DNA of 54,606 bases, filler included, from Sluysia triapertura (taxonomy: Eukaryota), in NCBI GenBank assembly GCA_046118255.1. It is 4 parts of 4 records of this genome, joined end to end, with 100 filler letters (N's around TTAATTAATTAA, not from the genome) between each part and the next. Parts side by side here need not be neighbours in the genome. Positions count along the whole stretch, not along the records: positions 1 to 17,252 come from JBJNIA010190385.1; positions 17,353 to 32,389 come from JBJNIA010240660.1; positions 32,490 to 43,541 come from JBJNIA010189574.1; 1 more part is not named here. One strand, written 5' to 3'. Position 1 is the stretch's first letter. Every line of letters begins with the position of its first letter. The notes under the pieces were generated by a model. The model did not search any database. It was not told the origin of the DNA and was given only the letters and a program-made list of their open reading frames with translations. This document shows positions 3,724 to 33,965 of the stretch, in pieces. Both the position numbers and the translations under genes were made by a program.

Positions 3724-5400
3724 TGTGGTCAACCTATACTTTAACAAATTTTATTTTATCATAATCAATTTCACAAGTCATCAAATATTTATTTTAAAAA
3801 TTCATTCAAAACATCATTAATTTAATTCAATATGTTACACATTCTAAAACATTAATTTTTTTATCAAAGCCTTTTCATGTTTTATTTCCTTTTTCATATT
3901 GTATTTCTTCAGATCCACTAGAACTATTCTCATTTTAATACATGTTGAGTTACAAACTTATTACACCCAAATCACTTAACATACAAAACCATTAACACAT
4001 TAAATGTTACTTAAAACATTTTAACCCATAATTCATAATATCAGAATTACAATTACATCTAAAACCATCAATTTAAAATTTTAAATTTATTTAAAATATT
4101 TTAATTCAAAAGCTTTCAATATCCAAACCATAATGACATTCAAAATCATCAATGTTCATTCAAAAAATTCATATAAAGCATTCAAATTCATAATTTTAAC
4201 ATCCAAAATCACCAAACACTTACCTAATAAAATTAATCTAAATATTTTTAACTTAATTTAATATATCACACACAAAACCACACTCCATAACACTTCACCT
4301 ATTTTACCATTAAAACATTTTATACTTTAATTCTCTTAGATCCACTAAAACCATTTTCATACTCAAAATACTTTTAATTCACAAGTTTTTATTGTCCAAA
4401 CCTTCTCTTCAACAAAACCACCAATCTACATTAAAAAATTTATCTAAATCATTAGAATCACAACTTATATTTCAAAAAGCATAAAAAATGAAACCAAGTA
4501 TCCACATAATCAACAAAGAAAAGAACTATAAATAAATTTTATTAGAATGAATTTTTTTAATAAAATTTTTATGTATTTTAAAATTTAATAAATAAATTTT
4601 ATTAAGCTAAAAGTGTGGTGGCCAGCCTATTTTCCTAATAACTTTTATAAAAATTTGCATAACATATTCTTGAAACACTCATCAAAAACATCAATTTTAC
4701 ATAAACTTTCGCTAACCTAATAATCATTCTCAAAATCTACAAATCACATTCAAAAATCAACAGAAAACAACATTAACTAAATCAACACATTTTACATAAA
4801 ACCATACTCTTAAACATTTTAACATTCTCATATTTATCTCTTTTACATTCACTAAAAGCATCCTTTTTACATAAGTTTTACTCAACACAACGTTTACTCC
4901 CAAAATCTACAACCTTATAACATATAAGTTACGGTGACATTCTAAACCATTAAATTAGAGTAAAAAATTCATTCAAAATATTTTATTTTTCTTTTCTTAA
5001 CAATTCGATATTAACCAATAAACATTTTCAAAGCAATCCAAACATTCTAAATTCACGATTTTGTACTATTAAACCCTAACAACCAAACATGACTTTCTTT
5101 CAAAACACCAACATACATTTATCACTCATTTTAACATTTACACTATTCTAATTTTCTTCACTCTATTAACATTTTCAGTTAGAAACATTATTTCATCTAG
5201 AACATTAGGCTGAATTATCTAAAATTTACTTAAAACCGGAAAAAAGCAACTAAATTATATATTAAAACGTTACGAATCTTCTTAAAACATTAACATTACA
5301 AATTCAAAATCCTGTAAACTTCATTCTTTTAGGTTTAATATGTTGAGAAAGTAAAGAGCATTAAAGAAAGATCGTGTACAAAGTTCTAAAAGATAAAAAG
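3724..5400 (+). repeat. G-poor interspersed repeat family, copy 1 (internally reiterated)
   Basis: About 3840-4210 aligns directly with about 50940-51295. The motif AGATCCACTA(G/A)AAC recurs at about 3910 and 4338. There is no G at all between 4179 and 4338. Confidence 0.75.
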
Positions 5401-5522
5401 TTTGTGTTTAGTAATAATAATAATATTTTGTTATTATTATTACGATCACCATTTTTATATTTCATTTATTTTTATTTTTGTACTATTTTACAAATGAGGT
5501 CCATAATCTACTGAGTAGCTAT

Positions 5523-5694
5523 CATCATCAGCAGTGACATTTTGGTTTACATTTATAATTTCATGTCACTGTTGATGATGGTTGTCATCACAGCATGATT
5601 TCATTGTTCATCTTCCTGTTAATTTGTATTGGCCATCCAACCAAAACAAGAACTACTACTATTTGCATAAAAACACTTCTGGTTGAATGACCAA
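5523..5694 (+). promoter_or_regulatory. Double inverted-repeat module (TGACA-type + CCAAT-type), copy 1
   Basis: Stems 5523-5540/5563-5580 (18 bp, one G.T) and 5629-5646/5677-5694 (three mismatches), just upstream of the 5824 ORF. The regulatory role is inferred. Confidence 0.5.
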
Positions 5695-5823
5695 TCAATA
5701 ATTTTTTATAATTTTAAAAATCGTAATCAATAAATAAATTATTACAAACCCAAATGTTATAAAGATTTAGATATAGTAAGTGAATTAAGAGATGACGCTA
5801 ATCCCGGCAGTTTTCATAAAACG

Positions 5824-6666
5824 ATGTCACGAAACAATGCCAAAGGTGATGATAACGAAGTCAATAATGTTAAAGATGAAAATTATCAAGTATATAATCA
5901 TGAAGATAAGGATAACGTAATTAACAATAATAAAGATGATGTCAAAGCTAACAATGTCGAAGATGATGATAACGAGGTTAACAATGTTGAAGATGGAAAT
6001 TATGAAACTAATAATGACAAACCTGATGATGACAAAGATAACAATGACGGAGATGATGTTACTCAGGCTAATAAGATTAAAGTTAACAGCAATAGAGAAC
6101 ATGCTTATCAGTTTCAAGGCTACAAAGATAATGACTATAAACTTAAAGATTACAAAATTGATGTTTTTGATTTTAATAAAAATAAAACATATGTTTAGAA
6201 TTTAATGAATATAAAATTAAGATTTACGAAATTAACGACGATAATAATAATCTTTACTTACTTAATTATTATAAACTTTACGAATTCGAACTTAACGATA
6301 ATAAAGATAAGCATTACAAGTTCAACGATTATAAAAATGCCTGTGTAACTGCTCTTTGCCCATCTTCCATTGACAACAACGGGATATACTTAATTCACGG
6401 AATATACTGCGGCCATGCTCTTTCTATTTACGAATTAAAGATTAATAAAGAAGACGAAGCGGATGGTATTGCAGAATTACTCAAGAGTATTGGAGTTACC
6501 TCGACCACTTCGACTGACAGTATTTTAATGGACCATAACATTAAGGTAAACAATTTTGATATTCATATCCTTTGTGTTATCAATTATTGTTATTTTTTAT
6601 TAGTAGGTGAAACAACTAAAAGAAGAATCATACGTAGGAGCAAAGAATTTAAATCAAAACCTCTAA
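5824..6666 (+). pseudogene. Orphan gene with an Asn/Asp-rich repetitive N-terminus; one apparent frameshift
   Basis: ORF 5824-6198 overlaps a second long stop-free frame starting at 6186. Removing 2 nt at ACATATGT (~6190) fuses them. A phase-0 GT-AG intron at 6546-6606 is followed by VKQLKEESYVGAKNLNQNL*. Confidence 0.5.
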
Positions 6667-31678: not shown

Positions 31679-32389
31679 ATTTGAGCAAAAATAATAAATA
31701 ATTATGTTTATAAATTATCATAAATATTTTAAATGTCACTAATCTAAAATAAAATTATTTAGATTTTTTAAACAATAAAAAAAATGATAGCCAAATAGTA
31801 ACTACAAATTAATTTAATCATTAATATACATGGATACCCGTAGAATTTTATTTTAAGATATGATGTTTAAAATCCTTTGTGCTTTTCATCAAGGATGAAG
31901 GTATTTAAAAATATAGATGTATTAAACTAAATGCTGCATTAACTACTTAAATTTACAAATATAGAAATGATATTTTAAAGAAATATTAATGTATTAAATA
32001 ATTACAAAACAAATAATTTTTGAACTAAATATTACAACAAACAATTAAAGGCCACTAATTAAATTATAACATACAATAATTCATTTACTATTACTTTAAA
32101 ATAATCTAAAATATCTACAACACAGCAAATAGTTTTATCTGGTTTATACATTTTATACATTATAAGAACATTTATATGTATATATTTTAATAATAATAAT
32201 AAATAATATTATTATCATTATTATTAATGTGATAATTTAATTATTTAATTTGTAAAGTTAAAAATTTGTAAAGTTAGTTAAATTAGTAAAGTTAAAAAAT
32301 TTGTAATGTTAAAGTTATAAATATTGTAAACAATCAAAAGTCCAGTTTTAGTCCAGTTTTCAAATAAATATTTAGAAAATTTTCAAATA

Positions 32390-32489
32390 NNNNNNNNNNN
32401 NNNNNNNNNNNNNNNNNNNNNNNNNNNNNNNNNTTAATTAATTAANNNNNNNNNNNNNNNNNNNNNNNNNNNNNNNNNNNNNNNNNNNN
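32390..32489. other. Artificial contig-joining spacer
   Basis: 44 N + TTAATTAATTAA + 44 N. Confidence 0.95.
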
Positions 32490-32889
32490 ATTCCGAATAA
32501 ATAGTCATCTTTTGTATATAAATAAGTCATGACCTTCGATGTTAAATTATAATTTTCATTAGTTTTTCTTTATTCAATTTCGTTGACACTTTAAACATTT
32601 TATAATATCAAATACATTCCACGGTTAATATTTCTACACGTTACTAAACCAGTTAGATCAAAAATTCCTATTATATCTACAAAATTTATTTCTGTATTAT
32701 GATTTATATTTATATTTGAAATTCAAAAACGATAAGAGACTTCAACTTTTTCTATCTATCAAAATCTATTAAATTATTTTTTCAAATTTTTTGAGCGCAT
32801 CCATTTTAACTTTTTGACATTTCTTTTTACTGTCTTTAGTGTATTTTTATTATTTTTATAACTACTAGTGACACTGCACAATTAATCGT

Positions 32890-33107
32890 GATTGGGTGTC
32901 CAATAAAAACGACAAATGATGATGTAGAAAAATAGCAATGATTGGACGTCCAATCAATCAAAATAATTGCTGATTGTGTTGTGTACATAGTAGTGATTGG
33001 ATGGCCAATTGTATTTGCTATCACCTCATCCAATTACAATTGATAGTAACCGTCAGTAATGACAGTAAATAATCCAAACAAATCGAAAAACTGTCATTGC
33101 TGACAGT
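32890..33107 (-). promoter_or_regulatory. Double inverted-repeat module, copy 3 (reverse orientation)
   Basis: Stem 33052-33066/33090-33104 plus three GATTGGNNGNCCAAT palindromes (32890, 32940, 32995). It faces AAAATGGATGCG at 32804 on the minus strand. Confidence 0.5.
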
Positions 33108-33965
33108 GTGAATAATGGTAGAAACCACAAAACATGTTAATGATTTGAATTTTAAATGAAAATGCTGGCCACCACATAGTTATATTTTAATGACATAGTT
33201 ATATTATAGCAATCAATTTAGCCAGTTTTATTTTATGCTATTAAATTAAATTTCAATGTCGAGATATCTAGACACACTAAGACTGAGACAATCTTAACTA
33301 AATGAATATGTCGAGGACATTTTATTTTTTATATATGTCGTGATTTATGCATGTCAAGGTGATGTTATAGTTTTATATTTTGATATTTATATTTTAATGT
33401 TTCGTATTATTCATTATATTTAGAAAATTTAAACAATTTAAGATAACGAAAATTAAATTATAATAAAATTAAATTAATAATAAAACTGATAAAAAACTTA
33501 AAAAATCATATTAAGAAAGTATTATTGATAATAATATTATTAATAATCAAATAGTACTTAAATAAGTACCAATATTAGTAATACGAGACATTTTTAAGAT
33601 CATTAACATTATTACGTCCTTTAGGCCAATATAATAGATATTGTATAAAAAATAGTTTCAGAAACTTACTAAAGCTCATAATTATTGAACACAGATATTT
33701 ATAAGTTTTATTCAGTAGTTATTTAAAAGTTTTATTATAAACAATTATCGTGTAATTTTTAAATTTCTTTGATTTAAATCCTTGATTTATTCAAGCAGCT
33801 AATTTGTCAAACCAGTGATTTATTTTTCTGTGGATCAAAATTAATTTTCACTACATAGTCGTTCGTTATTTAAATTATAAGTTAAAAACTATTTACATGC
33901 AGAAATATTTCACTTAAAATTGTAAAAAACTTTTCTTAAAATCCCATTAATCTTACTGAACTCTG

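Follow-up and report, generated by a model that had tools for sequence, protein, structure and literature searches.

Pack-MULE and Pack-terminal-inverted-repeat (Pack-TIR) elements, as described in PMC8277862, are non-autonomous DNA elements with a conserved end and a variable interior of captured host sequence, some of it transcribed. Gene-capturing Helitrons, in the account given in PMC4224331, leave no target-site duplication (TSD), have a short conserved end and a heterogeneous interior, and take up promoters and 5′ gene parts, and planarian Burro is reported to carry host-like accessory domains (PMC6431247). Here we compare with such systems a repeated non-coding unit in 54,606 nucleotides of Sluysia triapertura DNA (assembly GCA_046118255.1; hereafter the window). 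An earlier note on this DNA had described three copies of a cassette, namely a 13-mer, a G-poor tract, a TGACA hairpin, a CCAAT hairpin and an orphan open reading frame (ORF), and had proposed either a shared promoter or the conserved end of a mobile element. The window has a G+C content of 24% and consists of four contigs joined end to end by identical 100-base linkers (44 N, a 12-base palindrome and 44 N) at 17253-17352, 32390-32489 and 43542-43641; adjacency across these linkers is therefore no biological evidence.

A dispersed non-coding repeat, sharply bounded on its left

The exact 13-mer is present at the three sites previously reported and nowhere else in the window: 4614 (+), 27850 (+) and 33176 (-). 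Linkers separate all three, so each copy indeed lies on a different contig, and the count in 40 order-2 Markov simulations was 0. With three further relatives at 3724 (+), 17703 (-) and 50752 (+), there are six start motifs, all of which begin with TG. They were initially chosen by eye and then subjected to profile leave-one-out, where the left-out motif was the best non-training match in 6/6 cases (E 5e-5 to 0.15).

Five of the six start motifs head a C-rich tract of 340-820 nt (C 18-26%, G 3-5%), with the downstream sequence above the 98th percentile of C/(C+G). In copy 1, the exact 13-mer at 4614..4626 (+) is followed by a C-rich, G-poor tract at 4627..5335 (+; C 20%, G 4.5%); in copy 2, the exact 13-mer lies at 27850..27862 (+) and the tract, recognized by its composition, at 27863..28490 (+). 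Copy 3 (33164..33176, -) also matches the 13-mer exactly and has no such tract: its next 300 nt contain 54 C and 44 G (70th percentile), and the G-poor tract that had been ascribed to every copy is thus a property of copies 1 and 2. The three relatives each head a tract as well. The first (3721..4560, +) stands head-to-tail before copy 1 and has no module, the tract of the second (17353..17703, -) runs off the contig end, and the third (50752..51474, +) includes a 78-bp internal repeat and the E motif described below and is cut by a presumably pogo-type transposon.

Over 467 aligned bases, the tracts at 50752 and 3724 show 82% identity; the indels between them measure 1, 2, 5 and 14 nt. Since these indels do not come in threes and every frame contains stops, the tract is a non-coding dispersed repeat. 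A coding role was also considered with reassigned stop codons and rejected, all three stops being spread across the frames. Upstream of the start motifs, most of 21 pairs of flanks were near shuffle level and a few slightly above it: the left boundary of the unit is sharp, and the flanks are mostly unrelated.

Between the 13-mer and the last CCAAT, a length of approximately 1.1 kb, copies 1 and 2 are collinear, and beyond that point they are unrelated; the parts stand in the same order, with a spacing of 902 and 924 nt, on different contigs. The strongest segment is a purine-rich motif, E, that closes the tract (5337..5380, + in copy 1; 28492..28535, + in copy 2, found by segment alignment to copy 1; z 9.3). 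It is followed by a spacer (z 5.8) with an AT-rich palindrome at 5409..5442 that is common to 28695-28726, and by inverted pairs A and B (z 3.3 and 3.5); the tract itself aligns weakly (z 2.7). Beyond the last CCAAT, the values fell to 1.5 for the adjoining DNA and 1.1 for the ORFs. Another E motif, weak by leave-one-out (E 0.72) and without a 13-mer, lies at 6889..6925 (+) ahead of module 4. A start motif is found on the same strand at most 1 kb upstream of three of the five TGACA/CCAAT modules (P 4e-4 for random placement, post hoc). We conclude that the unit is repeated at dispersed sites, is non-coding and has a sharp edge on its left, and that different coding sequences follow it in the same orientation.

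No phage match was found for 4614-5700. A second C-rich repeat family occurs at 38515-38609 (-) and 43351-43436 (+), its alignment beginning exactly at TG; the 38609 copy is followed by a small TGACA...TGTCA hairpin. An inverted repeat with a 13-mer-like arm (22758-22829, -; fold z -1.7) precedes a broken RING-like stretch at 22400-22520 (-), for which 3 or 4 of the 6 weak PDB matches were TRAF/TRIM/RNF RING proteins (E 0.9-4.5).

Inverted TGACA and CCAAT pairs

An inverted-repeat search of the window returned the hairpins of all three copies, and the modules now number five. Module 1 consists of pair A (TGACA...TGTCA; 5516..5587, +) and pair B (CCAAT-type dyads; 5628..5695, +), both supported by the search and by folding. 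Module 2 (28774..28944, +) has pair A at 28774-28821 and pair B at 28878-28944 (hairpin 28878-28936), and module 3 (32889..33107, -) combines pair A at 33049-33107 with three ATTGG-N4-CCAAT dyads in inverted repeats 32938-33012 and 32889-32956. The two additional ones are module 4 (7016..7266, +; pair A 7016-7094, pair B 7201-7266) and module 5 (54357..54480, -), which resembles module 3 (z 5.1) and contains two TGTCA dyads plus a degenerate CCAAT dyad; its arms do not cross-pair, and it folds as two separate dyads. Nine of the 14 top-scoring inverted repeats of the window fall in modules. Nine repeats exceeded the best score of two block shuffles, seven of them in modules, while the shuffles gave 3 and 4 repeats at the same threshold. 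In leave-one-out with an A+B profile, module 3 was recovered at E 7e-6, module 2 at 0.089, module 1 at 0.37 and module 5 at 2.0, and module 4 was not recovered.

Each arm is itself a dyad. TGTCA-N4/5-TGACA occurs three times exactly (0.25 expected) and ATTGG-N3-8-CCAAT four times (0.43 expected). The stems have diverged between copies and still pair with themselves, as had been noticed before: the arms of pair A are 87% identical within a copy versus 53% across copies (best of 24 permutations), and those of pair B 80% versus 68% (best of 6 permutations), with a spacing of 33-35 nt in the three B pairs measured.

Lineage-specific RNA hairpins, such as microRNA precursors or leader structures of a transcript starting at the 13-mer, would account for pre-miRNA-sized stems with fold z of -4.2 to -7.0 for A1-A4 and for a covariation score that only 7/500 shuffles reached, a score obtained from four sequences with the structure drawn from these. 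This explanation is extremely unlikely. Internal mismatches are mostly transitions and of both kinds (G-T versus A-C: 3 versus 2 in A, 1 versus 4 in B), the better fold of pair B is on the bottom strand in 3/5 modules and on the top strand in 2/5, the variable part is the mid-arm, where a seed would be expected, and Rfam gave five weak matches for the window, none at gathering score. Given that the arms are dyads, that wobble pairs show no strand preference and that the arms of module 5 do not pair with each other, we read the hairpins as inverted pairs of double-stranded DNA sites and not as an RNA gene. A hammerhead core, as in hammerhead-bearing Penelope-like elements or retrozymes, had two loose matches in the window (25712, + and 3912, -), neither of them at a module, and no Rfam match. 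Two strong hairpins unrelated to the modules lie at 45729-45779 and 52721-52755.

Which proteins might bind these sites can be suggested from consensus likeness alone. CCAAT is the NF-Y consensus, and CCAATC(A/G), which we take to be the NF-Y-type core, has 7 of its 16 window matches inside modules (0.29 expected). The other two assignments of the earlier note were not confirmed in detail: the 13-mer contains TGTGGTG and not the RUNX consensus TGTGGTY, and in copies 1 and 2 the first hairpin carries TGACAT instead of the TGACAG proposed as a TALE site. The TALE DECA site had no match in the window.

In another reading, a battery of genes natively uses the TGACA/CCAAT module as its promoter design (NF-Y with a TALE-like factor), and the 13-mer and the C-rich repeat are a separate element that lies upstream by chance; this is rather unlikely. 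The modules do lie just upstream of coding frames, their arms are dyads, and module 5 retains dyads that do not cross-pair. CCAAT boxes are reported as enriched in planarian intestinal and epidermal promoters (PMC10558129), and TALE and NF-Y are described as co-occupying zebrafish sites (PMC6023610). A chance association would leave unexplained the collinear E motif and spacer and the equal distance to the 13-mer at two unlinked loci, as well as the statistical link between 13-mer and module given above. In addition, where the two factors pair in zebrafish, DECA lies about 20 bp from CCAAT according to the same source, whereas the modules lack DECA; the profile found no module upstream of the intact receptor gene described below, and one module heads a pseudogene.

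Coding sequences downstream of the modules

By its sequence, the window is AT-rich animal DNA of spiralian, probably flatworm, affinity. It contains an intact, intronless rhodopsin-type G-protein-coupled receptor (GPCR) gene at 40916-41893; among named relatives, a Schmidtea receptor is the nearest (39%). Exons of an EH domain (intersectin-like) with an intron of about 35 nt lie near 31100-31650 (-), the best match being snail intersectin (50%). Since no further EH-domain exons were found, copy 2 of the unit and the gene following it may sit antisense inside an intron.

Three of the five modules are followed by a stop-free frame of at least 115 codons (P 0.004). Modules 1, 2 and 4 precede the frames ranked 1, 3, 4, 8 and 9 by length in the window, and these frames share the first-position G bias of the GPCR gene. 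Gene 1 (5824..6770, +) begins with the ORF already reported at 5824, which is real (5824-6198, Asp/Asn-rich) and overlaps a second frame, 6186-6770; GT-AG segments are present at 6163-6198 and 6546-6606. Gene 2 (29098..30544, +) is likewise divided into two overlapping frames, 29098-29445 and 29426-30544, the latter being the longest in the window (372 codons). The ORF placed earlier at 29095 exists, with its ATG at 29098 opening a long frame; position 29095 itself reads TTG. Gene 4, which follows module 4 (7831..8439, +), has GT-AG segments and is a possible distant paralogue of gene 1. Module 3 is followed by short frames only. The ATG at 32804, formerly taken as the ORF of this copy, opens 11 codons, and the contig ends at 32490, approximately 310 nt on.

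Homologues were not found for genes 1, 2 and 4. For the gene 1 frame 6186-6767, 0/69 candidates passed at E 0.1; for the 372 residues of gene 2, there was none at E 0.001 among 1.84 billion representatives and none in Pfam; and an exact-sequence look-up in a protein collection returned 0/6 window frames. Gene 2 had weak leads to a TrkA kinase stretch in PDB (E 0.11-0.19) and to acyltransferase-like Atlas clusters (E 0.86 and 0.77), which we rejected as mutually inconsistent and below significance, and its single-sequence structure model was unusable (pLDDT 31.6). Genes 1 and 4 have an exon end in common (shuffle p 0.012, BLASTP E 0.05, DNA z 0.7) and may, from this likeness, be old tandem paralogues with introns.

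Downstream of module 5 lies a broken copy of an animal-type cystathionine gamma-lyase (53686..54260, -) with stops, in two frames (PF01053, E 4.2e-6; PDB, E 1.1e-4 and 0.046 in the two frames). Its best PDB matches are entries named cystathionine gamma-lyase, and the alignments, over about 80 and about 50 codons, show no gap the size of an intron. It is cut by the transposon, and no parent locus is present in the window. The earlier claim of different orphan ORFs downstream therefore stands for the missing homologues of genes 1, 2 and 4, whereas this gene copy and the possible paralogy of genes 1 and 4 show that the downstream sequences are neither all orphans nor all different. The transposon is a remnant with a Pfam DDE_1 match (51475-53685), which we take to be pogo-type; it has a short motif three times at each end in opposite orientation and lies between the 50752 unit and the broken lyase copy, adjoining both. 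A tRNA-like sequence just upstream of module 5 (54551-54606, -) is cut by the window end and was not called by ARAGORN, which found no tRNA gene in the window.

Could the downstream sequences be mere neighbours? The unit would then be a whole small insertion, solo-LTR-like (LTR, long terminal repeat) or MITE-like (MITE, miniature inverted-repeat transposable element) with a promoter, that landed before resident genes, some of which now use it. This is unlikely, although the TG start, homology that stops at the CCAAT boxes, the GT-AG segments that genes 1 and 4 contain as native genes do, and the second TG-starting C-rich family at 38515-38609 and 43351-43436 all agree with it. No TSD or CA end was found, and a random landing about 100-570 nt upstream and in sense orientation in 4/5 cases is improbable.

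Retrocopying by an LTR retrotransposon, in which the unit comprises a long LTR and a leader and the genes after it are reverse-transcribed mRNAs, would explain the TG start and the gapless lyase alignment, and such a mechanism is described in animals (PMC5131818). We consider it very unlikely. Genes 1 and 4 contain GT-AG segments, and the hallmarks of such an element were not found: the TG start previously likened to that of LTRs is there in 6/6 motifs, but without a 3′ CA end with a 4-6 bp TSD and without a second LTR copy of high identity. LTR elements have a primer-binding site (PBS) after, or a polypurine tract (PPT) before, an LTR. Only 5-9 purines are present in the 15 nt upstream of the start motifs, CA precedes TGG in 1/6 of them, and no PBS-like start after E or B was seen by eye. 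Pfam gave no gag-pol match for 73 stop-free frames, nor for broken frames, which were read with X across part of the window; a six-frame scan through stops covered 43642-46383, 46514-54606 and 17 selected stretches elsewhere.

Other repeats of the window include a 60-75 bp repeat in three copies, 76-82% identical (3000-3061, 10071-10143, 38323-38401), and a MITE-like element with a 20-bp terminal inverted repeat (TIR) at 23112-23338, with a related, partly duplicated copy at 15157-15835. Further pairs, 71-85% identical and several of them inverted, are 10436-10900/13521-13947, 11510-11636/39831-39956, 21467-21546/21775-21853, 456-541/687-776 and 17916-18067/20150-20282. A 24-bp tandem array at 44296-44567 (11.3 copies, 96% matches) is open in several frames. 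Coding remnants at 18700-19700 (-) and 14480-14900 (+), which by eye we take to be Harbinger-like and LINE-like (LINE, long interspersed nuclear element), respectively, had no Pfam support.

The unit as a candidate element end and its place among known systems

Our preferred, if tentative, explanation is that the stretch from the 13-mer to the last CCAAT is the left end, with an inward-facing CCAAT promoter, of a gene-carrying mobile element. Between the two readings offered earlier, an element end fits better than a shared promoter because of the sharp left boundary, the 82% identical dispersed tracts, the homology that ends at the last CCAAT and the decayed copy of a housekeeping gene, even though no transposon hallmark was found. 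Mobility is needed to explain a non-coding unit of 1.1 kb that is collinear between copies, has a sharp TG edge and stands at unlinked loci before unrelated coding sequences, such a gene copy among them; its close sense-oriented link to genes makes these simplest to understand as cargo.

The unit would be the left end of an old, diverged, non-autonomous family, with the 13-mer as the terminus read by the integrase or transposase of the element. The paired TGACA/CCAAT dyads would be protein-binding sites, with NF-Y probably at CCAAT, that form an inward-pointing promoter, and the downstream sequence would be cargo copied from host DNA and transcribed from it. Most copies would later have been truncated, tandemly duplicated or struck by other transposons. 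The match of arms within a copy could arise from inverted duplication or from homogenising correction by template switching, rather than from a working RNA hairpin.

Several observations weigh against this explanation. The order of parts is not obligatory, and the cassette is looser than earlier described: 3/6 start motifs have no module within 1 kb, and 2/5 modules have no start motif. Modules 4 and 5 are weak members by their profile scores, both P values (4e-4 for linkage and 0.004 for the ORFs) were calculated after the copies had been picked, and the possible tandem origin of genes 1 and 4 means that some copies may have spread by plain duplication. The checks that the earlier note had suggested for TSDs and a shared 3′ end gave chance-level TSD matches with no common position, although old TSDs can decay, and no common sequence downstream of the three ORFs. 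No convincing inverted partner of the 13-mer (at most 3 mismatches) was seen downstream in any contig; three copies lie near contig or window ends, and on such short contigs the right-end tests are limited for them. No transposase, reverse transcriptase or Rep/helicase was linked to the unit in the frames scanned, which did not cover every broken frame. The facing ends 27850 (+)/33176 (-) and 4614 (+)/17703 (-) were rejected as element pairs, being on separate contigs with flanks that by eye lack a duplication.

A stronger version is distinctly unlikely: an unclassified animal gene-capturing element with a single conserved TG end, a self-correcting dyad promoter and no TIR, TSD, PBS or Helitron terminus, which copies host genes, expresses them at once and in this way gives rise to fast-evolving lineage-specific genes, their density on small contigs being about one per 10 kb. 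If the preferred explanation is right, an invertebrate genome would have in such elements a way of making new gene copies that are transcribed immediately, and some orphan genes there would be explained as diverged cargo. Gene capture by transposons is already known in animals, so the interest would lie in the unassigned mechanism and the built-in promoter. The unit was undescribed in the literature we found, which is weak evidence because a repeat library is not a paper; such a library may already contain it, and as a catalogued repeat or a native promoter it would be an annotation detail.

With no second end and no class hallmark found, the unit fits no family tested, and the comparison with known systems is one of partial likeness. 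Composite TALE and NF-Y sites, as presented in PMC6023610, join TGACA-type motifs with CCAAT as the modules do; unlike them, the modules are made up of inverted dyad pairs, A and B being tens of bases to about 100 nt apart. LTR elements and Ginger have TG...CA ends in the description of PMC6839031, of which the unit has the TG start only. These elements and Burro also resemble it in a non-coding stretch of several hundred bp that contains promoter-like sites; it differs from all three in that no CA end with TSD, PBS, PPT, second repeat, TIR or gag-pol was found. In Helentrons/HINEs and DINE-1, a 12-15 bp motif is reported to be conserved across otherwise diverged families that carry internal tandem repeats and palindromes (PMC4067079, PMC7492417), as in the unit. 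The unit differs in having no 3′ subterminal inverted repeat, no T-run at its edge and no inverted repeat of at least 5 nt within 35 nt of any of the six start motifs. Helitrons have a 5′ TC, a 3′ stem-loop and CTRR according to PMC4224331, whereas the unit starts with TG, has no shared 3′ end that we could find and was seen without Rep/helicase; the head-to-tail copies at 3724/4614 are Helitron-like, as are a short conserved end before a heterogeneous interior and the lack of any TSD found, which would equally fit decay. From Pack-MULE and Pack-TIR elements the unit is set apart by having one visible end and neither TIR partner nor TSD found, and it shares with them a conserved end before a variable interior. 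As proposed here, the element would work like Pack-MULEs and Pack-TIRs or like a gene-capturing Helitron.

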